Positions 9,196-63,583 of a DNA stretch of 64,000 nucleotides are shown piece by piece. The stretch is from an uncultured virus (IMG/VR IMGVR_UViG_3300037067_000914) (taxonomy: Duplodnaviria > Heunggongvirae > Uroviricota > Caudoviricetes). Made by a program: the position numbers and the translations under genes. Each line of letters starts with the position of its first letter. Position 1 is the stretch's first letter. The stretch lies in IMG/VR virus record IMGVR_UViG_3300037067_000914. One strand, given 5' to 3'. The notes under the pieces are model-generated. The model did no database searches. It saw nothing but the letters and a program-made list of their open reading frames with translations, and had not been told where the DNA came from.

Positions 9196-9495
9196 ATGAG
9201 TGAAGACGTACATGAAACAAACAACGTAGTACCAACTGATCCACCAGTACCAAGGGTACTCGCGCCTGTGCCAACGCCAGAGCCAACCGTGAACCCCGCT
9301 GCTCCCCCTAGCGACGCTGGTGACTGGTCGGACAAATGTGTGTGTGGTTGGAGAACAGAGGACCTACGAGAAGACTCTAACTTCTGGGGACAGGTAGACT
9401 TTCCTAGCCCAAAGACGGCCACGGACTTTTTTGTCTGCCCAAAGTGTAACAGGGTACTTCGTATCTACATGAAGTCCACACGGAGAGGTGTGTAA
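9196..9495 (+). CDS. hypothetical zinc-ribbon protein with Pro-rich N-terminus
   Basis: RBS AAGGAGG; CVCG and CPKC. Confidence 0.6.
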   Translation: MSEDVHETNNVVPTDPPVPRVLAPVPTPEPTVNPAAPPSDAGDWSDKCVCGWRTEDLREDSNFWGQVDFPSPKTATDFFVCPKCNRVLRIYMKSTRRGV

Positions 9496-11226: not shown

Positions 11227-11308
11227 GCCCTCGTGGTGGAACAGTTTACACGACAGACTTAAAATCTGTTGGCGAATAGCCTTGTAGGTGCGAATCCTAC
11301 CGAGGGCA
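11227..11308 (+). tRNA. tRNA-Leu(TAA)
   Basis: Acceptor GCCCTCG/CGAGGGC; ACAGA-CTTAAAA-TCTGT; long variable arm. Confidence 0.9.
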
Positions 11309-11313
11309 CACAC

Positions 11314-11395
11314 GCCGGGATGGTGAAATTGGCAGACACATACGGCCTAGGACCGTATGCCGTAAGGCATGGGAGTTCAACTCTCCCTCCCGGTA
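11314..11395 (+). tRNA. tRNA-Leu(TAG)
   Basis: Acceptor GCCGGGA/TCCCGGT; TACGG-CCTAGGA-CCGTA; variable arm TGCC-GTAA-GGCA. Confidence 0.9.
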
Positions 11396-11403
11396 CTATT
11401 AAT

Positions 11404-11474
11404 TGGCCCGTCATCCAATGGTAGGATCAAGGGCTTTGGACCCTTGTATATAGGTTCGAATCCTATCGGGCCAG
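11404..11474 (+). tRNA. tRNA-Gln(TTG)
   Basis: Acceptor TGGCCCG/CGGGCCA; AAGGG-CTTTGGA-CCCTT; T-loop TTCGAAT. Confidence 0.9.
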
Positions 11475-11488
11475 CTAATTAAGGAGAC

Positions 11489-11671
11489 TTGTTTATGAAC
11501 ATCTTTAAAGAATTGGTGGATCGTTTTTGTGGGTGTGCGACAGAATACCATGATTGTAAGCATAAGTCTACATGCCCATACTACGAAGGTGGTTCGTGCT
11601 TTGCCTACGACATGAATGTGTTTTGTAAACAATATTATACACGTTCGAATCGTGTCGGGTCAGCACAATAG
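11489..11671 (+). CDS. small Cys-rich hypothetical protein within the tRNA cluster
   Basis: RBS AAGGAG; fills the gap between tRNAs. Confidence 0.45.
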   Translation: MFMNIFKELVDRFCGCATEYHDCKHKSTCPYYEGGSCFAYDMNVFCKQYYTRSNRVGSAQ

Positions 11672-11743
11672 CTAGGGTAGCTCAGACGGAAGAGCAGCTG
11701 ACTTGTAATCAGCAGGTCGTGGGTTCGATTCCCACTCCTAGCT
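11671..11743 (+). tRNA. tRNA-Thr(TGT)
   Basis: Acceptor GCTAGGG/TCCTAGC; GCTGA-CTTGTAA-TCAGC; canonical T-arm. Confidence 0.92.
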
Positions 11744-11914
11744 CTAGGAGGATACTATGATACAAAACGACGGAGCAGGACAACTCGACAAGGCTGCAAC
11801 GGAAATAGATAGATTGTTAAAGGCCCTCCAAGAAGTGCACCAGTTAGTGCATCAAGTAGGGCCTTACGAAAGAATAGTACACAAAATAAAGATCGTCGTA
11901 GATAAAGCATTAAC

Positions 11915-11987
11915 CAGAGTATAGCTCAGTTGGTAGAGCGCGTGCCTTGGGCGCACGGGGCCGTAGGTTCGAACCCTACTACTCTGA
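11915..11987 (+). tRNA. tRNA-Pro(TGG)
   Basis: Acceptor CAGAGTA/TACTCTG; CGTGC-CTTGGGC-GCACG; canonical D and T loops. Confidence 0.92.
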
Positions 11988-14900
11988 CTAGTAGTTGTAT
12001 TGCATCAGTTCAGGATTCATTCTCCTAAGTCTCTCGTTTCTAATCCTAGATAGTTTAGCCTTCTTAGCCCTAGTCCTGCGCATGTTCACTACATACGTGC
12101 GGTACTCAGCAGGAGATATCTTAAAGTTAGCTAGGATATCAAACAGCCTGGCCCTCTGTGCCTTGGACAACGACGGGTCTTTTAGCCTATTGATAGTGTA
12201 CCCTACATAGCTATCCACATCTATTAGTAAGGAGTTAAACTCCTCCTGCATGGACGCTGGCATATTCTTATCTGCCATTGCCCTTTCAACTTCTCGGTTG
12301 TAGTAGAGTAGGGTCTTTCTAGGATCACCCTCGCGTTCCAGATACCTGAACTGTTCCTCTCTCTTCTCTCTCATGTCGAACAGGTTTCTAACCCATTCCA
12401 TTTCCTTACGATCCTTCTCTGAGGTAACAGACCTCACACCCGCTGCGGCCTCTAGAAAGGACACCATGTTATTGAGTTTTCTCTGTTTAGCCTGTGTAAA
12501 CACACTCCACGAGATAGGCTTAAGTTCATCCCCAGCGTGCTGAGAATACTTAGCTAGCTTAACTAAGAATGGATCGGTAAGATGATATACCTTATCACCC
12601 TTCCAGTCAATAACCGAACGGCCCTCAGAGATGTCAATGAAGTCTCTGGTAAAGGCCACAACCCCAGAGTGCATGTTGCCTAGACGCTTGAACACCACTG
12701 CTGGAATCCTGTGTGGTCTACCAAAGAACACCTGACTATATATTTCCCAGTAATCCTTGTCGAATGTAAGAAGGTCGATCATAATAGTACGACCTTTGTA
12801 GTCCTTCTCGCCTGTGTCAATCTTAAAAGAGTCTCTAAGTTCGTCCTCATCCTCTGGGAACTTAGGCCACTTCTTGGTAAATACGGCAGTTCCTACAGCC
12901 GCTAGTACTGCGGAGATAGCGAACGAGTTCAGAACAGCCCAACGCGCCCTAGCGCCTTGTCCTTCTGCGTCTCCCCACTTACTCATGGACGCGTAGATCG
13001 TCTGCATGTTACCTTCAGCGAATCCTGGGGCGAAGAATGGGAAGCGTAGCAGAGAGGTCATAGTGCCTGTTCTACCGTAAATCTTCTCGTTGACTTCACC
13101 CTCAAGGAACATTCCCTGCTTGACAATCTCAAGTTTCTGAGCGGAGGTTAGAGGTGTTCCAAGCTTGGCAGACACTCTGGTCACTTCGGTAATGGCTCTA
13201 GCCGCCTGCAGTGTGGGAATGTAGTACTCGAATAACCACGAGTTAAACCTACGCCCAGCTGCTATATCTAGTACAGTCTTAAGCCCATTAGGGGCCTTAC
13301 GATATAGAGCTTCAAAACCCAACTTGCGTAGGACGCCCTCGAAATGGCCGAAGGCTTCGCGCTCCATAGTGGAAGAAGACACCCTACCAATGGGGGTAAG
13401 CCCGTGACGTAGCAAGTCTTCATAGATCGCCTTAGCCTCTGGGTCCTGATAGAACATGTCGCGGAGCTTGTGGCCAGAGAACAAGAAGTCCTTGAGACCG
13501 AACTTATACCCCGTCTTAGTCATCTTAGTAGCCCACGCTTCTGGGTTTAGGAACCCCATGAATCCGCCAGCATCAGCTATAACCTGTTTAGTAACCGTGC
13601 CATAGTGGAACGTGGACATAGAGAACTTGACCCACCTCATCGTGGTGGCTATCTTGCGCACCTGGTTAGCTGCAGATGTATGGGTTACTTGGTTAATCGT
13701 AAGGTTGTTATTGATAACCCTAGCCATGGTCGGTTCAGCGAAGTACTCACCGTTCCAAACAGGGTCAGTAACCTTGCCGATCATTTCCCAACCAGTAGGA
13801 GGTTCGATCTGATCTCCTAGTGTATACTCAGACGCCGTTTCCTTATACGCTAAGTTAAAGGCTTTAGCTCTCTTACGAGCTTCCTTAAGTTCTACCTGTA
13901 ACTGCTTAACAACTACTTTACCTTCTCGTGTAATACGGGTGACTTCCTGCTCAATGAGCATTTTCCTACCTGCGATACCTCTACCCCTAACAACCCTGCG
14001 GTACTTCTTACCATTCTTGCCCACTACCCACACTGTACGCTTAGGCGAAATATCCACCAGTTCCTTAGTCGTGCGTACAATGCGATCCTTGACCTCTTGT
14101 CTAGCAGCCTTTATTCGCTTAACAATCTCACGGGCTTCGTCTTTAGCTTTACCAAAGGTAGACTCTTTCTGCATAGCCTTTATGAAATCTAACGCTTCTG
14201 TCTTGTCGGCAAAGAATTTAAACTGACCCTTAACGAATGGACGACCTAGTCTCGCAGCAGCTTCAGGGCTTGGCATGAGTTTATCTACCCACCAGCCCCT
14301 GCGAACAATGAACTTAGACCCACTCTTATCGTTGTTAGTCTTCATCAAGTAGTCACGTAACTCTGCTTGTGCTATCATGTTACTAATAGCAGCGGTCTCA
14401 TCCAACAGGTTACGGAAGACATTGGGTTCCTTAAGCCTATTACCAGCCGCGATAGCGTCAGCATAACTCTTATATCTGGCCCGTTCAAAGAAGGAGTCAG
14501 AGGTTACATACACGTCATTGGACACGCCCAGGAACTTCCGTAGCTGCTCCCCCACAGATTGCGCGCGTTCGTAACGCCCATAGAATAGCTTAGTGGACGC
14601 CTTGGTAGGTTCCTTCTCAATAAGAGTCTCTAAGTACTGCATTAACCTGAAGTTATAGTTATATAGTTCCTTGGCTCCAGCTAATACGTTACCATCTAGA
14701 AGCTCAGGATGTTTAGCCTCAAGCATGGCTCTATACATATTCTGAGAAATCTGCCCAAAATCACTTTCTGGAGTACCACTGATAACAGCTATGATAGCGT
14801 CATTAGTTTCCCTATCATACTGTGATAGATAAGCCACCATATCACCCACGGACTTATCTATGGACTCCAACTTCTTGTTAAAGAACTCAGCTCTGCCAGC

Positions 14901-46621: not shown

Positions 46622-46879
46622 ATGTCACTAATGGATCAGTACAATGACCAGATGATAGAGGAATTAGAGGATGAGCTTATTTCTCTGTCTGGTTTTGGGT
46701 CATTCAGGATAGAAGCGCAAAAGGCGAAGAGTCCCCGTGACTTCATGAATCTGGTACGGGTTGCTTCAAAAGCTGAGGGGTTGTGTAAGGACGTCATGTT
46801 CAAGATACTCCAGTCAGCACACAGTAAGTTGGAAGATGGAGAGGAACCTACTGTACTGGAACCTGTTACCAGAGGATAA
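46622..46879 (+). CDS. hypothetical protein
   Basis: RBS GGAG. Confidence 0.6.
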   Translation: MSLMDQYNDQMIEELEDELISLSGFGSFRIEAQKAKSPRDFMNLVRVASKAEGLCKDVMFKILQSAHSKLEDGEEPTVLEPVTRG

Positions 46880-47178
46880 TGCACATGAAGTTTCAGATAG
46901 CAACAAAACTTGATGAGCGTGAGGATATTGGCATTACTCCAGAAATGGAGGACATGACAGGTGCTATATTTGACTTCACTGATACCAGCGGGAGTCAAAG
47001 GCCACACATTCAGAAAAGCGAACCGAGTTTCATATACATGAATCACTGGTTCTGGCATCCTGATTGGCTTATACCACTGGACGAAGAGGCAATTGAGTTA
47101 CATAATACAAGCTGTAACATATTGGGCATTAAGAGTAAATACTTCAACAGACAACTGGACTTGTTTAATGGCGACTGA
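46879..47178 (+). CDS. small protein with C-terminal QLDLF motif
   Basis: Ends RQLDLFNGD. Confidence 0.7.
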   Translation: MHMKFQIATKLDEREDIGITPEMEDMTGAIFDFTDTSGSQRPHIQKSEPSFIYMNHWFWHPDWLIPLDEEAIELHNTSCNILGIKSKYFNRQLDLFNGD

Positions 47179-47377
47179 CTATAGAATACCTGATGGTTAT
47201 ACAACGGCAGGTATTGGTGATATAATCACCAGAGACTTCTTAGTAAAGGTAAGAATTGGCCCTGATACTTGGAGGAAGAGTAGTAAACCAGGAAGTCCAG
47301 TAACGGAATACGCTTATGGTAGGCTAATTTACATAAAGCCTGTAACAGCTGGTCAATTAGACCTGTTTCATAAGTAA
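47168..47377 (+). CDS. small protein with C-terminal QLDLF motif
   Basis: Ends GQLDLFHK. Confidence 0.7.
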   Translation: MATDYRIPDGYTTAGIGDIITRDFLVKVRIGPDTWRKSSKPGSPVTEYAYGRLIYIKPVTAGQLDLFHK

Positions 47378-47439
47378 GCGTACTAAGGGGGAGCAGGGAA
47401 TTGGTGGGTGGAAACCGCTAAGGCCAAGGAGATAGGCAA

Positions 47440-47559
47440 ATGAGACAAGTGCCGATACCGCAGACAAAGCGACCAAAGGTATGGGGAATGCTCATAGCAC
47501 TCGCCGTACTGCTCACCCTGATCAAGTACATTCAGTCACTGGATAAACTCGTGAGGTAA
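47440..47559 (+). CDS. 39-aa single-TM peptide (not in ORF track)
   Basis: RBS AAGGAG; MRQVPIPQTKRPKVWGMLIALAVLLTLIKYIQSLDKLVR. Confidence 0.5.
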   Translation: MRQVPIPQTKRPKVWGMLIALAVLLTLIKYIQSLDKLVR

Positions 47560-47703
47560 TGTATGAGTGATACTTATCACTACGACAAGAAGGAACAGCA
47601 CGAGAACCCCAAGAAGGTTAACAAGGGGTTCCGTCACGAATGCAAGTGCAAAAGAGAAGTCAAGTGTGTGAATTGTGTAAGTGAAAAACCCATAGGTAAG
47701 TAA

Positions 47704-47985
47704 ATGATACCTGTTGATTCAAGGGTACGATTAATACGCAGGTCTGAACGTGGACCAGAAATACCGGAGGGAAGTACAGGTACGTTACTAGTGCACTATA
47801 ACGCACAAGTAGCAGGAGTGGAGTGGGACCTTCCCGTACCTAACCACGCAGGACATCGACTCTTAATGAATGGCCATATACAAACACGGCCGGAAAGACC
47901 GTGTAAACCTGGACACGGGTATTGGGTCTTCACAAAAGACATTGAGTCAATTAACCAACAGTTAGACCTATTTAACAAGGAGTAA
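47704..47985 (+). CDS. SH3-like small protein with C-terminal QLDLF motif
   Basis: SRVRLI...GSTG...GVEWD...GYWV; ends QQLDLFNKE. Confidence 0.7.
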   Translation: MIPVDSRVRLIRRSERGPEIPEGSTGTLLVHYNAQVAGVEWDLPVPNHAGHRLLMNGHIQTRPERPCKPGHGYWVFTKDIESINQQLDLFNKE

Positions 47986-47987
47986 TA

Positions 47988-48282
47988 GCCCACTTCTTCC
48001 CTCGTTGTGGAAGGACACATAGCCAAAGGCTCACACTGCCAACCGCCTAGTACCTAATGTCCGAGGTACCTCGGTTGTAGGAAAGAGTGCTATTCCTATT
48101 ACCCGAAACTGACGACAGCAGTGAACGGCCAAGCGACAGTAAGTAGCACGTGAGGCTAGTGGTAAGGCGATTCAACGAAGTGCCAATAACGTGGATTCCT
48201 TCGGGACCTGAAGCGGTACGGCATGGAGTATTCCTTACCGAGGTCATATCCGAGCTTTAAGATGGCCGGGGAAGAGGTGGGT
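47988..48282 (+). ncRNA. candidate ~295-nt structured RNA
   Basis: 15-bp closing stem, nested helices, UUCG loop; no + strand ORF of 60 aa or more. Confidence 0.55.
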
Positions 48283-48308
48283 ATAGTTTTAACAATAAAG
48301 GATTAAAC

Positions 48309-48500
48309 ATGGGCAGTAAAACTGTAATATGTGATGTGGCTGAGAAATGCAACAATACAGGCTGTGGTCACAGAATCCCACATGAACATTGGGGGCCGTG
48401 TAACAGTCATTGTAGAACAAGTACAAATGTGGAAAGTTCACGCTGTATACCTTATACAGAACCTAATAGTCAAATGGAGTTGTTCGATGAAACCAAATAG
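48309..48500 (+). CDS. Cys/His-rich small protein with C-terminal QMELF motif
   Basis: Ends SQMELFDETK. Confidence 0.65.
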   Translation: MGSKTVICDVAEKCNNTGCGHRIPHEHWGPCNSHCRTSTNVESSRCIPYTEPNSQMELFDETK

Positions 48501-48804
48501 ATTTAGGTTTAGAGTATGGGGCAAAAGAACCAAAGAACTTGAACTATTGGACGTTGCGTGTTTGTGCTCGTACTTAGACCAGGACGAAGATTATATTATC
48601 ATGCAATCCACCGGACTTACCGATAAGAATGGCAAGGAGATATTTGAAGGCGACTTGATAGAAGTCGGATACAGAATGGACTATCTAATTACCGTAGAGT
48701 GGGAACAAGAGACTGCGAGTTTTAGCGAGTCTGTGTGGCAGTATCCTGATGGAGTTGAAGTAGTTGGTAACATATACGAAAACCCGGAGTTACTAACCAA
48801 ATGA
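48487..48804 (+). CDS. YopX-family protein
   Basis: FRFRVW...MQSTGLTDKNGKEIFEGD...EVVGNIYENPELL. Confidence 0.85.
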   Translation: MKPNRFRFRVWGKRTKELELLDVACLCSYLDQDEDYIIMQSTGLTDKNGKEIFEGDLIEVGYRMDYLITVEWEQETASFSESVWQYPDGVEVVGNIYENPELLTK

Positions 48805-49028
48805 AACCACGTGTAGGACAACGAGGTGTACTTAGAGGGTACACCACTACGCCAGGTAGCACTCCCATTAACGGCACACCATTCGAAGTGATTGAAAGTC
48901 ACGAAAGTACCGTAGGTGCATTCTTTAGAATACGCATAAGTCCCCCGACAATATACGCAGGGGATTACAACGTAACACTGGCTAATGTTACACTTGAACC
49001 AACAGGTCAATTGGACTTGTTTGAATAA
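48801..49028 (+). CDS. small protein with C-terminal QLDLF motif
   Basis: Ends GQLDLFE. Confidence 0.7.
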   Translation: MKPRVGQRGVLRGYTTTPGSTPINGTPFEVIESHESTVGAFFRIRISPPTIYAGDYNVTLANVTLEPTGQLDLFE

Positions 49029-49045
49029 CCATAAGGTAACATACA

Positions 49046-49297
49046 ATGCGTATTGAAGATGTCAGAGTAGGTCAGATATTGGAGTGGACAAAAGGAAGAC
49101 ACACCTCTGATGAGTTTGTTGGGAAAAGGTTTAGAGTGACCAGAATAGAACCACGCACAGCCTCGTTTGGTGACTACAATGTTTACGGAGTCTTGCTGCA
49201 AAATATAGGATATTACAGGGAGGGAGAAGAATACAACTGCGGGTACAAAGATTGCATACCAGTCCCTGAAGTTGGGCAGTTAGACTTATTTGAGTAA
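49046..49297 (+). CDS. small protein with C-terminal QLDLF motif
   Basis: Ends GQLDLFE. Confidence 0.7.
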   Translation: MRIEDVRVGQILEWTKGRHTSDEFVGKRFRVTRIEPRTASFGDYNVYGVLLQNIGYYREGEEYNCGYKDCIPVPEVGQLDLFE

Positions 49298-49529
49298 CAA
49301 ATTATATACAGGAGTACCCATGCCTCACGTCAGATGTGGACGATGCGATAGACCATGCGACTTGTACTGTATACAAGCAGCACTAGCACGATTTATGGAA
49401 GAAAACCAGGAAGTATTAGACAAGGCACTACCTGATATGGACAAACCCATAAAGCTTAGTTTTTGTGGGTTTGAGATAATTCTTGACACAGACAGTACTT
49501 ATTGGATAAACGACACGACAGGTGGATGA
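49290..49529 (+). CDS. hypothetical protein
   Basis: CGRCDRPC; the start may be ATG 49320. Confidence 0.5.
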   Translation: MSNKLYTGVPMPHVRCGRCDRPCDLYCIQAALARFMEENQEVLDKALPDMDKPIKLSFCGFEIILDTDSTYWINDTTGG

Positions 49530-49537
49530 GTAACTAC

Positions 49538-49612
49538 TGCCCCTTAGTTCAATTGGCTGAGAACGTCGGCCCTACATGCCGGATGTTATAGGTTCGAGTC
49601 CTATAGGGGCAA
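49538..49612 (+). tRNA. tRNA-Val(TAC)
   Basis: Acceptor TGCCCCT/AGGGGCA; TCGGC-CCTACAT-GCCGG; T-arm ATAGG-TTCGAGT-CCTAT. Confidence 0.85.
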
Positions 49613-49677
49613 CTCAAGGACGTGTACTCTAGTCTTTATTCGTTCATTGAAATCATCACTAATCTAGGAGGCGTCTC

Positions 49678-50076
49678 ATGGAACCTATTGTATCCCCGTG
49701 GTTTATCTACTGGTTGGGTGTACTGGGAGGATTAGAGGTCTTCCTGCTCGTCCTCTCCGTCGTCACTGCCATCCTTGCGGTAATCTACCTTTTATGCAGT
49801 GTGGATGACGACACGGACAAGAACAACAGGCACGCGTACGCTAAAAAGAGTAGGGGGTTTCTGATCCTTCTAGCCTTCATAGCCCTTCTTATGGTGTTAA
49901 CCCCGTCGAAAGAGACGGTAATCGCCATGTACGCCAGCAGGCACGTCACCAAGAACAGCCTTTCCACAGCGGCGGGAGTTGTATCGAAGACGGCAGAGGA
50001 CATCAAGATGGACATAATTGACATTATCAGAGCGTTCACCGAAAAGCCCGACAGTACGAACAACAAGCGTCGTTAA
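49678..50076 (+). CDS. two-TM membrane protein
   Basis: MEPIVSPWFIYW...TPSKET; RBS AGGAGG. Confidence 0.7.
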   Translation: MEPIVSPWFIYWLGVLGGLEVFLLVLSVVTAILAVIYLLCSVDDDTDKNNRHAYAKKSRGFLILLAFIALLMVLTPSKETVIAMYASRHVTKNSLSTAAGVVSKTAEDIKMDIIDIIRAFTEKPDSTNNKRR

Positions 50077-50142
50077 CCAGCGGATGGTCTCCGTTCAGGT
50101 TCGACTCCTGGACGCTGGCAACTAATTTGTTAGGAGGTATTT

Positions 50143-50331
50143 GTGAAAGTATTCGAGGTCTCAATAAAGGCAGGCATCGTAGGAATGTTTCACGAACCAC
50201 AGAGTAAGTTTCGTGCTAAGTCGGAACAAGAAGCTGTTGATAAGCAGTGGAACAAGTCAGAGGCATTCTACAAAAAGCATGGAATTGAGAAACATATGCT
50301 ATTCGCAGAAGAGGTTAAAATAGAAGATTAA
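50143..50331 (+). CDS. hypothetical protein
   Basis: RBS AGGAGG; GTG start. Confidence 0.6.
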   Translation: MKVFEVSIKAGIVGMFHEPQSKFRAKSEQEAVDKQWNKSEAFYKKHGIEKHMLFAEEVKIED

Positions 50332-50349
50332 CTACTGGTCGAGAGGATT

Positions 50350-50574
50350 ATGGCTACAAAAATGTACCCTATTGGCAGTAAAGGTACAGTGAATCCAACC
50401 ACTGTGCCAAATGGCTTATCTGGTAAGCGGTTTGAACTGATAGGCATTGGCGGAGTGCCGCCATTTGTGTACCAAGTCATCATAAAAGGTTTTCCACATC
50501 GTATCAGCGCATGTGCTGAACATCTGATATTTGACAATATCCAAGAGAACACACAACTGGACTTATTCCAATGA
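50350..50574 (+). CDS. small protein with C-terminal QLDLF motif
   Basis: Ends TQLDLFQ. Confidence 0.7.
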   Translation: MATKMYPIGSKGTVNPTTVPNGLSGKRFELIGIGGVPPFVYQVIIKGFPHRISACAEHLIFDNIQENTQLDLFQ

Positions 50575-50825
50575 AAGATAAAAGACACAGCAAAGCCTAT
50601 TGGAATGGCCAGTCTGGTAAGAGAGTACTAACCTACCTGTTAGGTGTGGAGTTAAACCGTATAGATGATGTAAAAAGAATCTTCACTTTTGACAGAGTGT
50701 GTAACTGTGAGAGAACCCCAGTACATGGACTAGGATACTTAGACGGAGAAGGAGTAGCAGAATTCATAGACCTGATACACGCTGAACTGGTGGATGAAGA
50801 TAGACAATTGGAGTTATTTGAATGA
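50571..50825 (+). CDS. small protein with C-terminal QLELF motif
   Basis: Ends RQLELFE. Confidence 0.7.
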   Translation: MKDKRHSKAYWNGQSGKRVLTYLLGVELNRIDDVKRIFTFDRVCNCERTPVHGLGYLDGEGVAEFIDLIHAELVDEDRQLELFE

Positions 50826-51049
50826 AAACAGTGGTAGCAGGTAAGACATACAGATGGAGGTATACCCCTTCCCTGGTCAAAGACTTTATTGGGCACAAGT
50901 GTGTCTCGTTGAGAGGGGGAGACATTTCAGTAGTAGAAGTGCGTCTCTTAGAAAATGTTTTACACTTCCGGGTAGGAGATACTGTATACACCAGTACCGA
51001 TGCCTTAGAAGAATGCGACAATAGCCAACAGCTTGATTTATTTGAATAG
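50822..51049 (+). CDS. small protein with C-terminal QLDLF motif
   Basis: Ends QQLDLFE. Confidence 0.7.
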   Translation: MKTVVAGKTYRWRYTPSLVKDFIGHKCVSLRGGDISVVEVRLLENVLHFRVGDTVYTSTDALEECDNSQQLDLFE

Positions 51050-51078
51050 GCACAATAATTGCTACAAATCCTGTAACA

Positions 51079-51308
51079 ATGACACCGGCCCACTACGCTA
51101 ACACCAGCACATCCTGGTGTGCCTGACACGATCAGGTTAAACGCTTAGAAATGGGGGTGTCGTAATAGGCCAAAGAGCAACCAGCTTTGGCCGTGCTGGA
51201 CGTACTACGGAGTCGGCGCATTTAAACGGTGGTGGGCGGTTATGGTGGCGCGCCTGGTGTACTCCAACAGAGGCCCTTGGCACTGTGCTAATAGGCTCCG
51301 TACCGTCC
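51079..51308 (+). ncRNA. candidate ~230-nt structured RNA or leader
   Basis: At least five helices in an intergenic gap. Confidence 0.5.
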
Positions 51309-51326
51309 TCACTTTAAGGAGGAAAT

Positions 51327-51569
51327 GTGAAGTATAAAAAGGGGGATAGAGTACAGCTGTATAATACGGAACCAGATGGAGGGCCTGCGCCAAACAGTAG
51401 AGGTACAGTAATAGACGACGATGGTGTCTGTGGTGTATATACAGTAGCCTGGGATGGCTTTACACAAGGACATTCTAATGGTCAACATAGTGGGTGGAAT
51501 GTTCATCACAAATACTTTTACCTGATAAAGGGTAACGCACAACAGTTGGAGTTATTTGAGCAACCTTAG
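51327..51569 (+). CDS. SH3-like small protein with C-terminal QLELF motif
   Basis: KYKKGDRVQL...GTV...VAWD...GWNV; ends QQLELFEQP. Confidence 0.7.
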   Translation: MKYKKGDRVQLYNTEPDGGPAPNSRGTVIDDDGVCGVYTVAWDGFTQGHSNGQHSGWNVHHKYFYLIKGNAQQLELFEQP

Positions 51570-51622
51570 ACTTCAATACTTGCATATCACATAACCATTC
51601 ACCAAACACAAGGAGGTCAGAA

Positions 51623-52075
51623 ATGACCAAAGAAGCAATGCGTGAACTCGTCCACAAGCAGATCGTGGCGAGAACCCTGACGGCTCGCACCGTCTCCCCG
51701 AAGGTCCTGTCCATCGAGAAGGCACTGGCTCCGCTGGGCGACGGGTCCTGTCGGAGTGCCGTGGCCGAGGCCATCGGAGCGTCCATTGGGGAGAAGATCG
51801 AGCCCTCCTCCACCGGCTACCGGATGGGCGTGGCCTTCAAGATCAACCCGGAGTGCAAGGATCAGTACCCCGGAGGGACGATGAAGGGCCAGGTGTACGT
51901 GGCCATCGGGGACAACGTGGCGAAGTCCCGGCGTGAAGGGGGCCGTGAGTGGGTCGGCCTTCCGAAGATGGGCGGAACTCAGCACATGGTTCCGACCGAA
52001 GATGAGATCAAGGGCTACACGGACAATATGTCCGATGATGTCCTTTCCTTCTTCCTGCTCGCCCTGGCGGACTGA
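51623..52075 (+). CDS. hypothetical protein, probably highly expressed
   Basis: RBS AAGGAGG; strong C/G third-position bias. Confidence 0.7.
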   Translation: MTKEAMRELVHKQIVARTLTARTVSPKVLSIEKALAPLGDGSCRSAVAEAIGASIGEKIEPSSTGYRMGVAFKINPECKDQYPGGTMKGQVYVAIGDNVAKSRREGGREWVGLPKMGGTQHMVPTEDEIKGYTDNMSDDVLSFFLLALAD

Positions 52076-52173
52076 GCGTGGCAAACAGGACTTGATTTAG
52101 GCCAGTAGTTGAGTCAGGTAACTGACTTAATTACTCCGGGGTTCGACTCCCCGGAGTCTTGCTAAGGTACAAA

Positions 52174-53811
52174 ATGGCAACAACAACGGAGGTTAGTGTG
52201 CCCCCCACCAAACCTATACCCCCTGTGAGACCGGCCCACTTACGTCGATACGTAGTGGAATTCCGGGACGAATGGGGGGCTAAACAACAGACCAAGACTG
52301 ATAATCAGCTTGGTGAACAGATGATTTTGTTCGGAAGCAGGACTCCTTTGTATAGGTGCTTGGAGTGTGGTAAGAAAGTGGTAATGGTATGGTCTGCGTG
52401 TTCCTCTTGTCCTGAGAAGGATAAGCATAAGCATTGTGACCATTGCACAGTGCACCTTTGTCAGGATTGTAGACGTAATTACATACAGCCGTGTAAGAGT
52501 TGTGGTGGAATGTCTCCCAGACATCTATTCACGAGATTATCGTCAGGAATATTGGTATGTGATTCCTGTTATAAGAATCTGTGTAGCCCCTGTGAAAGTT
52601 GTGGTTCCAAGGAGCTAAGTCAGGAGCTGGTAAACGTCAGAACAAGTACAACTAAGGTCAAGAAGTATTGTAAGAAGTGCGCGTCTCAATACAGAACGTG
52701 CACTGAATGTAACAACAAAGCTGTTGACGATCAAATTAGTAAATTAGATAATCTGTACGTCTGTTCGAAGTGTTTACCACAGGTATCAGCTACTTGTGAT
52801 TGTTGTAAGAAACTGTTCCATAAGAGAAACGCCAAACAAGTAGCAAGAAGTGGCGAGCTGGTACTACTGTGCAATGAGTGCTTTTCCACAAAGTATTTTA
52901 AATGTGGGCAGTGTGGAAGTATACATCCACTGAGTAAGGAACACTATACAGATCGAATAACAAAGACTCATTACTGCATTCCCTGTTATAAACGAGAGTA
53001 CAACACTTCGATACAAAACTACTCACTTAAACCCATACCTAAGTGGTTTGGTGGTGGAACATCTCTCTTTATGGGGTTTGAGCTTGAGGTTGAGATGCCA
53101 CAGAACCCAAGAGGAGACGAGGCAGATCGAGTCATACAGTACCTACACAAGAATGAAATTTGTAAAGAGATGTTGTACTACAAGAGTGATGGATCGTTAA
53201 GTCATGGTATTGAGGTAATCACACACCCGTTCGTGTTTGAGTGGATGAAGGAACACAAGGAAGTTATAAAGCACATCAATGGTCTAGCCAATCTAGGATG
53301 TGCTTCGTACCATACCCGAACTTGTGGGTTCCACGTTCATATGTCTAAGGAGGCATTTACTAACGCGCAGTTATTTAAGTTTATGAAACTCATATACGAG
53401 AACCAAGAATTTACAAAGAAGATTTCACAAAGAACTTCGATTGAACGCATGAGTAGTTACGCGTCACTAACGGCTGGAAATCTAATCAATAGGGCAAAGC
53501 ATAAGAACAACCCACGAGAAGAGCGTAGAGGTGCTGTAAATCTGGCCCCTGCTCACACGGTGGAAGTACGAATATTCCAAGGCAACCTGAATCAGTCACG
53601 TATCTGGAAGAACCTGGAGTTCTGCCATGCTTTGTGGGCGTTTTGTAATGAGGTGACGTTCAAGGAAGTTACTGTACCTGTGTTCACTAAATTCATACAG
53701 GCACATAAGATCAAGTACAAAAACCTTGTACGGTTTCTGACCGGAGAGGTGGTTAAAGAGGACGACGAAGAAGAAGAGCCGACACCAGTAGTCAAAGGAA
53801 GGAGACCGTAG
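52174..53811 (+). CDS. putative amidoligase (COOH-NH2 ligase) with N-terminal CxxC repeat region
   Basis: GFELEVE, KSDGSL, GIEVITHP, TCGFHVH and TVEVRIFQG; many CxxC pairs. Confidence 0.8.
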   Translation: MATTTEVSVPPTKPIPPVRPAHLRRYVVEFRDEWGAKQQTKTDNQLGEQMILFGSRTPLYRCLECGKKVVMVWSACSSCPEKDKHKHCDHCTVHLCQDCRRNYIQPCKSCGGMSPRHLFTRLSSGILVCDSCYKNLCSPCESCGSKELSQELVNVRTSTTKVKKYCKKCASQYRTCTECNNKAVDDQISKLDNLYVCSKCLPQVSATCDCCKKLFHKRNAKQVARSGELVLLCNECFSTKYFKCGQCGSIHPLSKEHYTDRITKTHYCIPCYKREYNTSIQNYSLKPIPKWFGGGTSLFMGFELEVEMPQNPRGDEADRVIQYLHKNEICKEMLYYKSDGSLSHGIEVITHPFVFEWMKEHKEVIKHINGLANLGCASYHTRTCGFHVHMSKEAFTNAQLFKFMKLIYENQEFTKKISQRTSIERMSSYASLTAGNLINRAKHKNNPREERRGAVNLAPAHTVEVRIFQGNLNQSRIWKNLEFCHALWAFCNEVTFKEVTVPVFTKFIQAHKIKYKNLVRFLTGEVVKEDDEEEEPTPVVKGRRP

Positions 53812-54597
53812 ATGTGTGTAGCTATTGCCATACCCCCTGGCAAGGAGTTCTCGTACAACACGGCAAAGAACTGCTTCGACCGGAACAGAGATGGAGCCGG
53901 GTTTGCGTTCAACAACTTAGAGACTGGTAAAGTAGAGATACATAAGGGATACTTTACCCTTAAGGACTTCTGGAAGTCGTTTATACAATACCGTATGCGA
54001 TACCACCAGTCATCCTTCATGGCACACTTCCGTATCTCAACGCATGGTAAGGTGGATGAACCTAACTGCCACCCATTCCATGTGTATGAGGACGAGACAT
54101 TGGCATTCTGCCACAATGGAATCATATCTGCTATGCCAAAAGACGAGGAGAAGAACGACTCCAGAGTATTCATGGAAATAGTATTACAACAGTTACCCAG
54201 AGGATTCCAAGACAACTTTGCAATGCAGGTACTGTTACACATGGCAGTAACGTCGTCAAAGCTCCTGTTCCTTGACAATACTGGCAGATTTTCCTTTGTA
54301 AATAAGAAGGATGGGGAGACAAGTAAAGGGGTGTGGTACTCTAACACTTCCTACAAGTCTTACACAGTCACCACAACAACGTCACATAGTCTCGCAAAAA
54401 CAAGAAAGTGCCCCAAGTGTAACCAAGGAACAATATGGACAACAAGTGACGATAAAGCAAATATGTGTTACCACTGCCAAAAGAAATACCCGACACATTG
54501 TAAGACTTGTTCGATTGAGTTGGCACCTGACGAAAGATACGATGGAGAGTGTAGGATTTGTAGACCCAGGTGGGGGAGAGGAACATATGGGTATTAA
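53812..54597 (+). CDS. class II (Ntn) glutamine amidotransferase with C-terminal zinc ribbons
   Basis: Cys2, NRDGAG, HFRISTHG, NCHPF, HNGII and DSRVF. Confidence 0.85.
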   Translation: MCVAIAIPPGKEFSYNTAKNCFDRNRDGAGFAFNNLETGKVEIHKGYFTLKDFWKSFIQYRMRYHQSSFMAHFRISTHGKVDEPNCHPFHVYEDETLAFCHNGIISAMPKDEEKNDSRVFMEIVLQQLPRGFQDNFAMQVLLHMAVTSSKLLFLDNTGRFSFVNKKDGETSKGVWYSNTSYKSYTVTTTTSHSLAKTRKCPKCNQGTIWTTSDDKANMCYHCQKKYPTHCKTCSIELAPDERYDGECRICRPRWGRGTYGY

Positions 54598-55005
54598 GAT
54601 GACATATGAAGGCTTTGGTTATATGGACCAAAGAGTAATACTGGGGCCGTTAGAATATGCACAAGTAAAAGACTATCTCAGCATCTTTGTACTCTGTGTA
54701 CCGGTACTCATGGTACGGTTAGTGATCGCTGAACACAACAGAGGTTGGCATCTTGCAATCTTTGGGTTTAACTTCTCAGCGTGAAGGGGGGAGCAGTGGA
54801 ATTATACGACGAACCCGCCCAGGAAGATGACACAAGGCGAATGGAAATGTTACTAGCAGAACGTGACTTGGAAGAGGAGCTTTGGCATACTTATTGCTGT
54901 AATAAGGCTGTAAATAAAGGCGAAGAAAGGGCAAAACAACCTTGACAACAGGCCCTAATTTTCGTAAGTTATACCCGCACCGCACCACAAAATCATAGGT
55001 GGCAA

Positions 55006-55470
55006 TTGTCCTACACAGTAAAGTTCCGTTGTAAATCATGTGGTAAAGAATTCGAATCCGAGAGGGTGGAAAGCCCCAATGAGCTTGTAGCTATTATGGC
55101 TGGCCGACACCCGCAAATCCAACCCATTATTGGTCATCCTTGTAACGAGAACGACATAGGTATAGGCGAATGTTGTGGCCTTAACCTCATACAGGAGAAG
55201 GAATTACGCGTGCTAGAGTCTCCCATAGCGGAGACGGGGGAGCACACGCTAACTGGCAAAAGAGGACGGGGGAGGCCAAAAGCTTCTCCCTCCTCTGCGC
55301 CAGCGATTGATCCCACCAGTAATGTACGTGTATTCCTGGAGAACAGGAACATAGATATCCCTAGTAAAACCAAGAAGTTAACTGAGGAGAGTGTTGCTAA
55401 CTCCTTAGATATCAACAACTTGGTAGAGAATACCCCTACTGGCCTACCCACTCAAGTAGACTTGTCCTAA
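55006..55470 (+). CDS. hypothetical zinc-binding protein with AT-hook-like KRGRGRPK
   Basis: CKSCG; TTG start. Confidence 0.5.
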   Translation: MSYTVKFRCKSCGKEFESERVESPNELVAIMAGRHPQIQPIIGHPCNENDIGIGECCGLNLIQEKELRVLESPIAETGEHTLTGKRGRGRPKASPSSAPAIDPTSNVRVFLENRNIDIPSKTKKLTEESVANSLDINNLVENTPTGLPTQVDLS

Positions 55471-55479
55471 AACACATTT

Positions 55480-55746
55480 ATGACTGATAAAAACGCCACT
55501 GGCGTAACAGATATCTTTTCTCTGGACGATATCTCACGTATGTTATTGGTTAGTAAACCTAGCCTACAACACCGAGAGGATATTGGCATACTGCCTCAGC
55601 CAAAGAAACACGAAGACAACTCACCGTATTACACCCACCACGACGCAGTAGTAATCTGTGACATTTTCTTAGATAACGCCTTCTATGACAGAGATTTAGA
55701 TGAGGTTATCTATAGACCCGTACAACAAGGAGTTAAATGCAATTAG
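55480..55746 (+). CDS. MerR-like HTH protein
   Basis: FSLDDISRMLLVSKPSLQHREDIGILPQP...YYT. Confidence 0.5.
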   Translation: MTDKNATGVTDIFSLDDISRMLLVSKPSLQHREDIGILPQPKKHEDNSPYYTHHDAVVICDIFLDNAFYDRDLDEVIYRPVQQGVKCN

Positions 55747-55892
55747 ACTTGTTCTCAAAAGAAGACTCAAAGGTTCTAGCAAAGCGTCGCAGAGAACTAT
55801 GGAATGAGATACTAGCCCTATGGAGAAAAGAGCAGGACGAGTTTTTTCTGTATGGAAAGACCCCAGAACGATATCATATAAATCCTAAATAG
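55737..55892 (+). CDS. 51-aa protein with N-terminal QLDLF motif (not in ORF track)
   Basis: RBS AAGGAG; MQLDLFSKEDSKVLAKRRRELWNEILALWRKEQDEFFLYGKTPERYHINPK. Confidence 0.65.
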   Translation: MQLDLFSKEDSKVLAKRRRELWNEILALWRKEQDEFFLYGKTPERYHINPK

Positions 55893-55903
55893 TTAGGACA
55901 TTA

Positions 55904-57289
55904 ATGCCAGACCAGAACCTGACAGACCTGGGCAATTCGGAGAGACTGGTTGCGAATACTAAGGACGATATGCGGTATTGCCCCGCGTGGCGTTCATGGC
56001 TACACTGGGATGGAAGACATTGGGCTACAGACGACAGCACTGCCATCATGGAGAGGGCTAAGTCAGTCATAGCTTATATGCAAGTGGAAGCCCAGGGTGC
56101 TAATAACGAAGAGTACATGAAGTGGGCACAGAGGTCTGAGGATTATCACCATATCACAGCTATGATCAAGCTGTGTTCCCAGACCACGGGTGTAACTGTA
56201 TCACCTGAAGATTTTGATACTAACCCCATGCTTCTTAACTGCATTAACGGGGTCGTAGACCTGGAGTCAGGACAGCTGCTCCCCCATGACCGCGCGTACA
56301 TGATGACCCGATTAGTACCGGTCGTGTACAGACGTACTGCAGAAGCACCACGATGGCGTCAATTCATGCACGAAATCATGTCAGGTAATGGTGACTTGGT
56401 ATACTTCTTGCAGAAGGCTCTAGGGTACTCACTAACAGGTAGTACAAGAGAACAGTGTATGTTCATCTTGTATGGGAAAGGGGCTAATGGAAAATCTACT
56501 TTCATTGAAGCGATACGGAGTGTGCTTGGGGATTATAGTCGTGCTGCTGACCCCATGGTGTTCACCACTCGTAGGCAGGATTCTATCCGCACTGACCTTA
56601 TTCGTTTACGTGGCAGTCGCTTTGTATCTGCTGTTGAACTCAACCAAGACGCGAGGGTAGTCCTAGATGCCGCACTCGTTAAACAAATGTCAGGAAACGA
56701 TACACTGTCAGCGAGAATGCTGTTCTCCAACACCTTCTACGAATTCGTGCCCTCTTGGAAAGTATGGTTGTCTACGAATCCACTGCCTCATATCCCAGGA
56801 ACAGACCAAGGAATCTGGAGACGAATCAGACTAATTCGATTTGCGGCTAGTTTCGAAGGAGATGATGCTGATAAGAAGATCGACGAGAAGTTAGCACAGG
56901 AGAAGGAAGGTATACTGGCATGGTTAGTGGAAGGATGTATGAGATGGCAAAGGGAAGGACTGGAACCACCGGCATCAGTACAACGGGAGGTAAACGCATA
57001 CCGTGAAGAACTTGATCCTTTGGCGGGATTTATACGAGACAAGTGTCTTGTTCATGATGAGGCGATTATACCGAGCACTGAACTTTATGAAGCGTATACT
57101 GGCTGGTGTCAAGAAGCAAGGGAGAGACCCATGGGAAAACATCTATTCGGGCAGTCTCTTAAACTACGTCCGGGAATTGAGCAGGAGCGGACAAATACCC
57201 AGCGTTTCTGGACTGGCATCTGCCTTGGACGACAGGCAATTAAGAGGGTACATGTACTCTCAGTATCAACCGGGGAGGACGATGCCTAG
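55904..57289 (+). CDS. P4/D5-family SF3 helicase (primase C-terminal module)
   Basis: TDLGNSERL, LLNCINGVVDL, GKGANGKSTF, DQGIWRR. Confidence 0.9.
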   Translation: MPDQNLTDLGNSERLVANTKDDMRYCPAWRSWLHWDGRHWATDDSTAIMERAKSVIAYMQVEAQGANNEEYMKWAQRSEDYHHITAMIKLCSQTTGVTVSPEDFDTNPMLLNCINGVVDLESGQLLPHDRAYMMTRLVPVVYRRTAEAPRWRQFMHEIMSGNGDLVYFLQKALGYSLTGSTREQCMFILYGKGANGKSTFIEAIRSVLGDYSRAADPMVFTTRRQDSIRTDLIRLRGSRFVSAVELNQDARVVLDAALVKQMSGNDTLSARMLFSNTFYEFVPSWKVWLSTNPLPHIPGTDQGIWRRIRLIRFAASFEGDDADKKIDEKLAQEKEGILAWLVEGCMRWQREGLEPPASVQREVNAYREELDPLAGFIRDKCLVHDEAIIPSTELYEAYTGWCQEARERPMGKHLFGQSLKLRPGIEQERTNTQRFWTGICLGRQAIKRVHVLSVSTGEDDA

Positions 57290-57502
57290 CTCATATACTA
57301 CATATTCCACTTCGTGGAGTACTACCTCTAACTCTACTGCCACTACATACGAAGGTTATATCAGCCAACTGCAAGATGTTTATACGCGGCATCGAAGAAT
57401 GGCACTAGAATCTATAATACTTGATGACCTACAAGAAATGGCCAAACCAGAACCTAAGGGCCCAAGGTAGGGGACCAACTAGACCTATTTGAGGGTAAGT
57501 GA
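57282..57502 (+). CDS. Ser/Thr-rich small protein; zero frame stops at 57470, -1 frame continues to QLDLFEGK
   Basis: RBS GGGGAGG; the -1 frame TGA overlaps the next ATG. Confidence 0.5.
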
Positions 57503-57765
57503 TGGCAGAGAACTCACTTTATCAAGTAGTATACGGTACCTACAATGGTATAATACTCTATGATAACGATCGTGACATTCTTAAGGTGATGACCCCATTT
57601 GGGGGTATGGTCATAATGAATGGTATGTCAGTATGGAGAGAGCATCACTACCATTTAGAACAGTGGGCTAACCAAGTACTGGCCTCGATGAATCACCCGC
57701 CGCATAAATCGTACCAAACCGCGGATCAGGTAGGAAAACAACTGGAATTGGACCTAAATGTTTGA
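57499..57765 (+). CDS. small protein with C-terminal QLELDL motif
   Basis: Ends KQLELDLNV. Confidence 0.6.
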   Translation: MMAENSLYQVVYGTYNGIILYDNDRDILKVMTPFGGMVIMNGMSVWREHHYHLEQWANQVLASMNHPPHKSYQTADQVGKQLELDLNV

Positions 57766-57774
57766 TTTTTATGA

Positions 57775-58200
57775 AATTGACAAACCCTCAAAATGCCCCT
57801 TGTTTTTATTGAAGTTACGAGTGACAAGCTGTGACAAAGTTTTTTTGACTTTGTCACTCGATAAGTGCTTGTTTTTACAAGGGCCAGTGACGCGGTGACG
57901 CATTTTCATGTTATTAATTAAATGTGTGTGATGTTTATATATATACCTATACGCGCTCTTATGCAACCAACGTTGCAAAAACTTTGTCACTGTCACAAAA
58001 GATCACCGGAAACCATAAAAATCAACAACTTACAACGAAGAAAACTTTGTCACTACTTTGTCACTGATGGCCGAAAACCACTTGAAAAAGACCCAAAATC
58101 AGGCAAAAATTGCCTAGTGACGCGAGTGACGGGGGTTTTGAAAAGTTAAAAAATAGGTTTGAAAAAGGCGTGTCACTTTGTCACACCGGCAAAATTTGCC
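57775..58200. repeat. putative replication origin with GTGAC/GTCAC iterons
   Basis: About a dozen GTGAC/GTCAC copies in both orientations, an AT-rich core, and IHF-like AATCAACAACTTA at 58020. Confidence 0.65.
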
Positions 58201-58294: not shown

Positions 58295-59005
58295 ATGGGT
58301 GTAGGACTACTTAAGACGTTCTCAGGTGGTATGCTGGACAATGTTGTGGCGGAGATTAAGACGGCGAAGTACGCCGAATGGGAGTACCCCAACTCTACCC
58401 AGGGTCCGGTTCCGTGCGCTCTCATCGGGTTTCTCCCCGAGGACTCTGAGGACGTGAAAGAAGAAGCGTATACTCTTGGTGGTACGGTGGATAACTGGCG
58501 AATCTCCGCCGATGGGAAGACAGTGGATAGTCTCCGTACCAAGGAAGGTAAGGAAGCTGCGTTCAGTGAGAAGTCTAAATGGGGCAGGTTCGTAAAGGCT
58601 CTATCCAAGTGTCTTGTCGAACAGAAGCTTCCCACTGACTGGGCTACGGACGATATCACCAGCCTTATCGGACTTAAGGTTAACCTTGTACAGGTCGAGT
58701 CAGGGGGTAAGGGTACAGGTAAGGGAGAAGTGCGTACCATGGCTGTGCCTGACGAGGTGATTTCCCTCCCCGGTAAGGGAGCAACGGCTACATCCAGCGC
58801 CAATTCTGGTCTGGAAGCAAAGGCCGTGGCTATTATTACCGACATCATCGGGGATAGTGGTGCGCCTAGGTCGTCCCTGGCTACCAAAATCTTTACCATG
58901 ATGAAGTCTGACCCTGACAAAAATGGAGTTGCAGGTCTCATTACTAAAGATGCCTTCATGAATAAGAACTTCAATATTCTTGGCGGCATTGTGTACAAGA
59001 AGTAG
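58295..59005 (+). CDS. hypothetical replication protein, possibly SSB-like
   Basis: RBS GGAGGT; beta-rich N-terminal half; next to the origin candidate. Confidence 0.5.
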   Translation: MGVGLLKTFSGGMLDNVVAEIKTAKYAEWEYPNSTQGPVPCALIGFLPEDSEDVKEEAYTLGGTVDNWRISADGKTVDSLRTKEGKEAAFSEKSKWGRFVKALSKCLVEQKLPTDWATDDITSLIGLKVNLVQVESGGKGTGKGEVRTMAVPDEVISLPGKGATATSSANSGLEAKAVAIITDIIGDSGAPRSSLATKIFTMMKSDPDKNGVAGLITKDAFMNKNFNILGGIVYKK

Positions 59006-63026: not shown

Positions 63027-63583
63027 CTTTACCGGTATTAATTTGTATATTACGGATAAGAAAAGGAGGGCTTATGGCTTGGGTTAATTGTTTCTTCGTC
63101 ACGGTTGGGGTTGCGGTTGTCTGCTTGGTCATGCTGATTGTCCCGATGGCTATTCTGGCCGGTGCTTTGTCTAAGTGGACACCGAGGAAGGGCGCATGAA
63201 GCAGACGTTTGAGATTGAGCATAATTGCAAAACCAAGTTTGGCATTAGCACGGANNNNNNNNNNAGCCACCGCCACCGAAATAACCGAGACCGAGCCGGA
63301 CAAAAAGGACTGCGATAATTGCGTGTTCTGTTATCCGTTAAAAAGTTATAAATGCAAAAAGTGCGTCAGCAGTTACTCCGCTAATGGTAAGTTTTCCGAA
63401 TGGTGCGGCAAGCCGATAGAGGTGAGCGATGGAAAGTAAAGGGTATCTCTGCCTTGATTGCAAGCGAGGTTTGTCGGTTTTCCAGGTATTCTTTACGTGC
63501 TATGTCAGGTGTAATAAGTTTTCTATACCGCCAACCGAAAAGCCTTCCCATTTTAAGCCAATCGAAACCGAGGAGGAAAAGAA

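Follow-up and report, generated by a model that had tools for sequence, protein, structure and literature searches.

Small phage genes with terminal QL[D/E]LF motifs, putative ligands of the bacterial sliding clamp

The bacterial sliding clamp (the beta clamp, DnaN) is an essential and highly conserved hub and is a current antibiotic target. Its peptide ligands are summarised in passages of a review (PMC11139829), which give QL[S/D]LF as the consensus, after Dalrymple 2001, QLDLF as the strongest-binding consensus pentapeptide, and QLxLF and QLxLxF as high-affinity forms; the same passages place the motif at the C-terminus of Pol II (QLGLF) and Pol IV (QLVLGL) and at the N-terminus of Hda, and state that acidic residues or a free carboxylate behind it favour clamp binding. 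Here we describe a block of 10-13 small genes marked by peptides of this class in a 64,000-nucleotide stretch of DNA (hereafter the window) from an uncultured virus of the Caudoviricetes (IMG/VR record IMGVR_UViG_3300037067_000914), together with a tandem array of such genes in a second phage, G002. An earlier prediction made from the window (hereafter the original prediction) had named QL[S/D]LF and the QLxLxL hexamer as consensus ligands of the beta clamp, which agrees with the review passages (PMC11139829).

Cellular clamp clients resemble the tails of the window in peptide class, in their placement on a flexible end and in the trailing acid or carboxylate, but they are single enzymes with known DNA functions, whereas the window holds at least ten tiny, adjacent phage genes with no enzymatic domain. 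In phage T4, gp33, gp55 and gp43 contact the clamp gp45 through C-terminal tails. T4 late transcription works through this clamp (PMC2988020, PMC7892883), and the window would share with T4 the use of small phage proteins that contact a sliding clamp; T4, however, encodes its own clamp with its own motif type, whereas the window and G002 have no recognised clamp and carry the bacterial motif. In phage Mu, MuC uses terminal motifs to bind the host clamp, and the motif makes overproduction of MuC lethal; MuC and Mor, like the window proteins, are phage proteins with near-consensus motifs for the host clamp, in their case at both the N- and the C-terminus (passages of PMC12867686). Yet MuC, according to those passages, is a single activator that binds DNA, and its motifs (QHDLF, QPDLF) are imperfect, whereas the window has perfect motifs on many genes, whose bodies are not Mor/C-like by Pfam and PHROG searches.

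Two further precedents concern inhibition of the clamp. Suppressors of the toxins SocB (Caulobacter) and RipA (S. pneumoniae) map to the hydrophobic pocket of the clamp, so that the toxicity of small proteins is tied to this pocket and a precedent for blockade exists; these are, however, single chromosomal toxin-antitoxin genes and not phage early genes, and the passages of PMC12795458 drawn on here describe no motif array. Gp168 of phage Twort is a small protein that disables the host clamp, but it binds the DNA channel instead of the pocket and does so without a clamp-binding motif, according to the passages of PMC11139829 (citing Liu 2021), whereas the window tails carry the pocket-ligand motif. 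In the open-access literature and among bioRxiv preprints, a search turned up no description of an array of phage proteins with clamp tags. To our knowledge, the phage tactics against the clamp described so far are single proteins (MuC, Twort Gp168). Clamp-binding motifs as such, and individual phage proteins that rely on them, were already known; new here are the number of tagged genes (10-13), their mini-protein carriers, the unnamed SH3-like family that several of these share, and the tandem amplification of this family to 13 copies in a second phage.

Clamp-type motifs at the ends of small genes

A six-frame scan of the whole window with the pattern Q[LMIV][DESNQ]LF or QL[DE]L[DE]L returned 13 matches, all on the plus strand between 47152 and 57739 and each at the position listed in the original prediction (Table 1), and zero in the rest of the 64 kb. 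The matches comprise eight QLDLF, three QLELF, one QMELF and one QLELDL, and all 13 fit the definition of a clamp ligand given in PMC11139829 (Q-aliphatic-x-[L/M]-[F/L] or Q-aliphatic-x-[L/M]-x-[F/L]). Ten of them form the C-terminal ends of open reading frames (ORFs) of 63-99 amino acids (g1-g10), with the stop 1-4 residues further on as had been claimed, and the residues just after the motif are mostly Glu, Asp or the chain end.

As the original prediction had proposed, motif counts were compared with shuffled and random controls and with other viral DNA. In 100 first-order Markov random sequences the motif occurred 0.1 times on average (at most twice) and never at a terminus, compared with 12 and 10 observed, and 1000 residue shuffles of the 31 gene calls produced no tagged terminus, compared with 10 of 31 in reality (10 of the 23 genes of up to 100 amino acids). 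A single terminal match was present in 53 other loci (538,679 bases), a set made up of other viral and metagenome contigs and T7, in which 47 loci had been preselected for carrying the motif twice and from which seven loci belonging to G002 or to copies of the window were left out. Across the 13 motif stretches of 15 bases, Gln is encoded nine times by CAA and four times by CAG, position 2 uses six codons, the acidic position 3 uses GAC, GAG, GAT and GAA, the Leu before Phe uses TTG, TTA, CTA and CTG, and Phe uses TTT and TTC; the DNA flanking these stretches is dissimilar between genes. This synonymous spread within unlike flanks points to selection on the peptide and not on the DNA. Most other pattern matches in viral contigs are DNA repeats in non-coding frames, which would suit an origin of the motifs by chance or from a repeated DNA element, such as a regulatory site or recombination scar, that translates by accident to QLDLF. 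Such an origin is nonetheless excluded for the window by the placement of the motif at ORF ends, in frame each time, by the codon variation between unlike flanks, and by random controls that gave zero terminal matches.

The tagged genes are tightly packed, with stop/start overlaps at g1/g2, g4/YopX, g7/g8 and g8/g9, and Shine-Dalgarno-like sequences precede most of them; promoter and terminator scans gave a result no better than shuffles. Neither Pfam nor PHROGs supplied a family for any of the 13 tagged proteins (a weak match of g10 to DUF4314, at E 0.021, lies below the cut-off), and an Atlas search with g13 returned nothing usable. A relaxed form of the motif was absent from the 19 larger plus-strand proteins, with the sole exception of QMILF in the amidoligase ORF, and the polymerase, primase, nuclease and virion ORFs of the window have no motif even in this relaxed form, in line with the earlier statement that the phage polymerase, helicase and virion proteins are untagged.

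The middle of the tagged block (52159-54597) is occupied by genes for a Cys-rich 550-residue Amidoligase_2 protein and a class-II glutamine amidotransferase (GATase_4), which raises the possibility that the tails are substrates or tags of these two enzymes, with the common end as a recognition site for ligation, similar to Pup with its ligase. The location of both genes within the block is consistent with such a role, as is the C-terminus ...LFE of four tagged proteins. The terminal residue is not fixed, however, being D, K, E, Q, P or V among the tagged proteins and often the motif Phe itself among the G002 paralogues, and G002 has no Amidoligase_2; we consider a role as amidoligase substrates very improbable.

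Contigs of four public runs (X1-X4, of which X1 may be the source sample, whereas X2 and X3/X4 belong to two other studies) were compared with the window over 46800-57800; no RNA run was among the sequencing runs listed. In X1, 57276-57566 also exists as a co-occurring variant (40 differences; depth 9.09 vs 9.8), in which, as we read the listed changes, one extra base behind 57458 makes g12 continue in frame into ...GDQLDLFEGK and its stop. This makes the tail the natural end of g12, with a one-base deletion in the window strain. A programmed -1 frameshift at g12, for which a heptamer (G_GGC_CCA) stands in the right frame, was rejected because the variant lacks the heptamer and simply has one base more, as expected of an indel. 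In X2, neither of the two changes listed within the g13 hexapeptide (57741 A>G, 57754 C>T) alters the peptide, which, with the codon spread described above, supports the earlier claim that selection acts on the peptide. In X3, the DNA directly before the start of g3 (47704) encodes QLDLF and then a stop that overlaps this start, so that the relative has another tagged gene there, and in the lagoon-run relatives X3 and X4 the untagged gene 50143-50331 is replaced by 57 other letters (region 50089-50351). To judge from these contigs, the gene content of the tagged block turns over and the tail persists.

Table 1. Tagged genes and one weak additional motif candidate in the window
Feature	Coordinates	Strand	Motif start	Description
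g1	46879..47178	+	47152	99 aa, end QLDLFNGD*; body matches no recognised family; Atlas leads weak, <0.9
g2	47168..47377	+	47354	69 aa, ATG within g1 tail; end QLDLFHK*; SH3-like profile E 2.7 (not recovered)
g3	47704..47985	+	47959	93 aa, end QLDLFNKE*; borderline SH3-like family member, profile E 0.05, rank 4 of 447
g4	48309..48500	+	48471	63 aa, Cys/His-rich, end QMELFDETK*; tail overlaps start of YopX-family gene (48487-48804)
g5	48801..49028	+	49008	75 aa, end QLDLFE*; weak g6 paralogue; borderline SH3-like, profile E 0.16, rank 5
g6	49046..49297	+	49277	83 aa, end QLDLFE*; predicted SH3/KOW-like five-strand barrel with low-confidence tail; profile E 0.0034
g7	50350..50574	+	50554	74 aa, end QLDLFQ*; stop overlaps g8 start (ATGA); profile E 9.8 (not recovered)
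g8	50571..50825	+	50805	84 aa, end QLELFE*; body unlike other bodies; profile E 11
g9	50822..51049	+	51029	75 aa, end QLDLFE*; SH3-like family member, profile E 0.0081
g10	51327..51569	+	51543	80 aa, GTG start behind AAGGAGG, end QLELFEQP*; best SH3-like member, profile E 6.1e-7
g11	55737..55892	+	55740	51 aa, N-terminus MQLDLF, AAGGAG ribosome site; 12 bases upstream of D5-type primase-helicase (55904-57289)
g12	57282..57502	+	57476	62 aa, stop at 57470; tail GDQLDLFEGK* behind stop in -1 frame
g13	57502..57765	+	57739	87 aa, end QLELDLNV* (hexapeptide type QLxLxL, three residues before stop)
QMILF	52318..52332	+		weak extra-motif candidate, residue 54 of amidoligase ORF (52159-53811)

A shared SH3/KOW-like domain and a second tagged array

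The original prediction knew of no described phage system with so many clamp-tagged genes, but the set is not unique, since the unrelated G002 has 13 tail-coding copies. This complete 169.7-kb phage with terminal repeats was found by a motif-pair scan of IMG/VR, and at about 145.4-148.0 kb (5306-8563 of locus L005, minus strand) it contains a run of about 3 kb with 14 tandem paralogous SH3-like mini-genes, of which 12 are intact and tagged, one is frame-broken at the tail and one is tailless. The 12 intact ORFs span 74-117 amino acids and end in QLELF, QMELF or QLGLF, zero to five residues before the stop. Their tails keep Q, L and F without exception and vary synonymously in codons, while the bodies share 31-43% identity with the first sequence, retain the fold and conserve several polar positions; in G002, clamp-type tails are conserved while the surrounding bodies diverge. 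The array is flanked by genes for a Mom-like/DUF723 protein and an adenylosuccinate-synthetase-like protein. Elsewhere in G002, QLELF is encoded at one site only, as the very C-terminus of a 196-residue protein in the replication/recombination module, located between a 343-residue ORF (a Cas4-like nuclease by eye) and the primase-helicase. G002 encodes a family-A polymerase; the complete genome yielded no DnaN domains (PF00712, PF02768), no Pol III alpha and no Amidoligase_2, and beyond the family-A polymerase no kinship was detectable between its replication proteins and those of the window phage.

The relationship between the bodies of the two phages was examined with a profile of 29 sequences, none from the window and all with tails removed. 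It drew on the paralogues of G002, on six other small proteins and on the repeat units of two longer ones. Among 447 tail-less window ORFs, ranks 1-5 went to g10, g6, g9, g3 and g5, in this order (Table 1), a ranking with a chance probability of 1.7e-9; g2, g7, g8, g4 and g13 were not recovered as SH3-like members (E 2.7-20), and g1 was unlisted at E <=20; g11 and g12 likewise have no family assigned. The tail-less G002 family aligned with g6 in hhalign at E 2.3e-4 over 48 collinear columns and, in profile-profile comparisons, with g9 at 6.7e-4 over 45 columns, weakly with g10 over 14 columns, and not with g3. BLAST among the tagged bodies found only g5 and g6 alike (E 2.45e-4). On these comparisons, at least g10, g6 and g9 are members of a single diverged SH3-like family, the one that makes up the G002 array, and g3 and g5 probably are too; the family has no Pfam or PHROG model. 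The original description of the bodies as unrelated thus fails for the first three and probably for the next two, and the body of g8 is indeed unlike the others. That several bodies are SH3/KOW-like and one is Cys/His-rich was borne out.

AlphaFold predicts the same five-strand barrel, with the same strand order, for a G002 paralogue (pLDDT 88) and for g6 (pLDDT 87), although the alignment behind the g6 model included G002 paralogues and the two models are therefore not independent. In both, the final 10-13 residues have a pLDDT of about 55-73 behind confident barrels, and the tails are accordingly predicted to be floppy, exposed ends on folded domains. Structural neighbours of the barrel include KOW, Tudor, PsaE/NdhS, YorP and other SH3-like barrels, with a best Z of 7.7; Foldseek returned no neighbour at E <=0.001, and the fold match is generic only.

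The same body also occurs apart from the tail. HMMER with a mixed alignment, A3, matched 40 proteins at E <=0.001: 13 from G002; six from the window, all of which were in the query and hence matched by construction; three new small proteins that end exactly in QLELF or QMELF (P0017, P0018 and P0031); three small proteins with the same body and another conserved end, HYPxWW or HWPEWL (P0029, P0030 and P0032); and 15 longer proteins. P0017, P0018 and P0031 perhaps represent a third array; the longest contig of each is 7333 bases, possibly one and the same. Nine of the longer proteins examined contain the domain, mostly as tandem repeats, lack the tail and show weak SH3-type Pfam matches; four resemble unrelated beta-repeat proteins. 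The original prediction had asked whether homologous bodies elsewhere lack the tag, and this is the case in longer proteins and in three small ones, so that the tag is a module. A homology search with g6 found no protein besides g6 itself, and searches with the profiles A2 and A4 found none beyond the known set.

In P0029, P0030 and P0032 the end, K-x-H-Y/W-P-x-W-W/L, sits at the position aligned with QLELF and may be a second docking tail for some partner. These three relatives show that tails are exchangeable modules, and QL[D/E]LF might also bind a hub other than the clamp, for example the phage polymerase or primase-helicase or an unrecognised phage ring, or might act as a degradation signal for a host protease adaptor. 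T7 gp2.5 and gp4 illustrate such an arrangement with acidic aromatic tails that bind T7 polymerase, and several window ORFs have neither a family nor a solved relative. Nevertheless, the clamp consensus is matched at all five positions in 11 of the 13 motifs, the motif recurs in two phages whose only detectable replication kinship is a family-A polymerase, and the zero to five residues that follow the Phe suit a pocket ligand better than a strict C-terminal signal. We regard another hub or a degradation signal as quite unlikely.

The search for further arrays relied on pattern scans of IMG/VR for motif-coding pairs 186-216 bases apart, and arrays outside this spacing were certainly missed. Four scans yielded 51 loci, in which the true arrays are four loci, all from G002; the last three of these scans, with other codon choices, yielded 46 loci and no additional array, most hits being DNA repeats or internal motifs. 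One locus, L012 (4629-8608, minus strand), has three clamp-type termini within 3.5 kb beside a Sak4-like ATPase: a PD-(D/E)XK nuclease ends in KQMDLFNT, a PcfK-like protein in QQLDLFAEAQA, and the next ORF starts with MEEQLDLF. In another, L021 (5613-6234, minus strand), one large ORF contains four internal QLDLF copies in an Ala/Pro/Ser-rich, low-complexity and probably disordered stretch, and its product may be a multivalent clamp binder.

Proposed blockade of the host clamp or delivery to it

We put at about three in four the probability that the QL[D/E]LF tails are docking peptides for the host beta clamp, and at about one in two the probability of the fuller reading that, by occupying the clamp pockets, they shut off host replication. 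What we infer beyond the observations above is DnaN binding, early timing and competitive shut-off. The tagged block lies on the plus strand and opens the non-structural arm, next to the intergenic region between this arm and the virion genes, and because the block is tightly packed and stands in this position we take its proteins to be made together and early. The flexible tail of each small early protein would insert into the hydrophobic pocket of the host DnaN; the tail would be the conserved, selected part, and the bodies small, stable carriers, about half of them drawn from one fast-diverging SH3/KOW-like barrel family and the rest from other mini-domains. Jointly, the proteins would fill both pockets of every clamp and displace host clients, namely Pol III, the clamp loader, Hda, the repair polymerases, mismatch repair and ligase, and host replication and repair would shut down as a result. 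The family-A polymerase and D5-type primase-helicase of the phage, being untagged, would be spared, and g11-g13, which lie around the primase, may also tie clamps to the phage replisome. The family-A replicases of both phages are presumed to be clamp-independent, and we read the set as a means to occupy or exploit the clamp in such phages. An invariant tail on freely diverging or unrelated carriers favours blockade.

Several points weigh against blockade. One well-expressed blocker should be enough, so that 10-13 genes and kept folds are left unexplained. The tagged 196-residue protein in the replication/recombination module of G002 looks like clamp use, as do the tagged PD-(D/E)XK nuclease of L012 and its neighbours, and early expression is deduced from gene position alone. 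Additionally, the phage may encode a divergent clamp, or have a clamp gene in the approximately 2.3 kb beyond the window; no sliding clamp family was found among the scanned window ORFs.

Some of these points favour delivery, in which clamp-binding tails serve as address labels that bring their domains to clamps on replicating, mainly phage, DNA and so couple another process to it, whether transcription, recombination, DNA modification or host-factor capture, as T4 gp33 and gp55 do on gp45 and as MuC does. The kept fold with its several conserved polar positions, the resemblance of this fold to KOW/Tudor/SH3 adaptor domains, the tagged replication/recombination-module proteins of G002 and L012, and the location of g11-g13 on either side of the primase-helicase all argue in this direction, and precedents exist in MuC (passages of PMC12867686) and in T4 late transcription through the clamp (PMC2988020, PMC7892883). 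On the other hand, no body has a known function, the fold matches are of the generic kind noted above, at least ten cargoes competing for two pockets per clamp are hard to picture, and the window phage leaves its own enzymes untagged. Overall, delivery strikes us as somewhat unlikely, though it deserves serious consideration.

A more far-reaching, and in our view doubtful, proposal is that the tail is a portable clamp address label on fast-evolving mini-domains of unrelated phages and that the SH3-like arrays are an arms-race family. Each body would then capture or neutralise a different clamp-associated host factor involved in repair, replication licensing or defence, and the invariant tail would anchor it on a hub that the host cannot change; if true, this would amount to a clamp-centred host-takeover toolkit without a described counterpart. 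Returning to docking at the host clamp in general, ten or more pocket-ligand genes in one phage and an unrelated 13-fold amplification in another would mark the clamp pocket as a major battleground of infection. The tagged proteins would be natural, stable and genetically encoded pocket binders and candidate replication blockers. Both cases also define an SH3-like family of phage domains that had no name before. For metagenomes they suggest a simple search rule: in phages that lack their own clamp, QLxLF at a terminus of a small ORF would identify proteins directed at the clamp.

The window phage and its relatives

The window represents most of a genome of roughly 66.3 kb and contains one run of 10 N (63255-63264). 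Its minus strand encodes an SU10-type capsid protein, a P22-type portal and a terminase, and its plus strand a DNA polymerase, a MazZ-like dATP/dGTP diphosphohydrolase, a Sak4-like ATPase, an ERCC4 nuclease and an exonuclease, in addition to the amidoligase, class-II amidotransferase and D5-type primase-helicase. The polymerase (5567-8953) is a fusion of a uracil-DNA-glycosylase (UDG)-family domain, a 3'-5' exonuclease and a family-A polymerase, and together with the nearby MazZ-like gene (9495-10184) it hints at non-standard nucleotide handling. The ORF at 58295-59005, like several others in the window, has no family and no solved relative.

No near relative was found in a phage collection by DNA or by capsid protein. 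The relatives of the primase are distant proteins of Firmicutes phages only, and the terminase is at most 25% identical to those of named phages. Searches of IMG/VR with the primase and with the amidoligase found no relatives, and the nearest record, G001, duplicates only the structural region of the window. The terminase search of IMG/VR found one relative, L003 (62% identity), which has a different gene order, with genes upstream of the terminase on the terminase strand. The 16.5 kb of L003 examined has no clamp-type motif at ORF ends and one lone, non-terminal QISLF, so that the tagged block either is not fixed in the lineage or lies elsewhere in the L003 genome.

A scan with Rfam found no RNA besides tRNA. 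The phage has six tRNA genes, of which those for Leu(TAA), Leu(TAG), Gln(TTG), Thr and Pro are clustered at 11227-11988 and that for Val(TAC) lies inside the tagged block (49538-49613). The Gln and Leu tRNAs read the commonest codons of the motif (CAA, TTA/TTG and CTA/CTG), which may be a coincidence.

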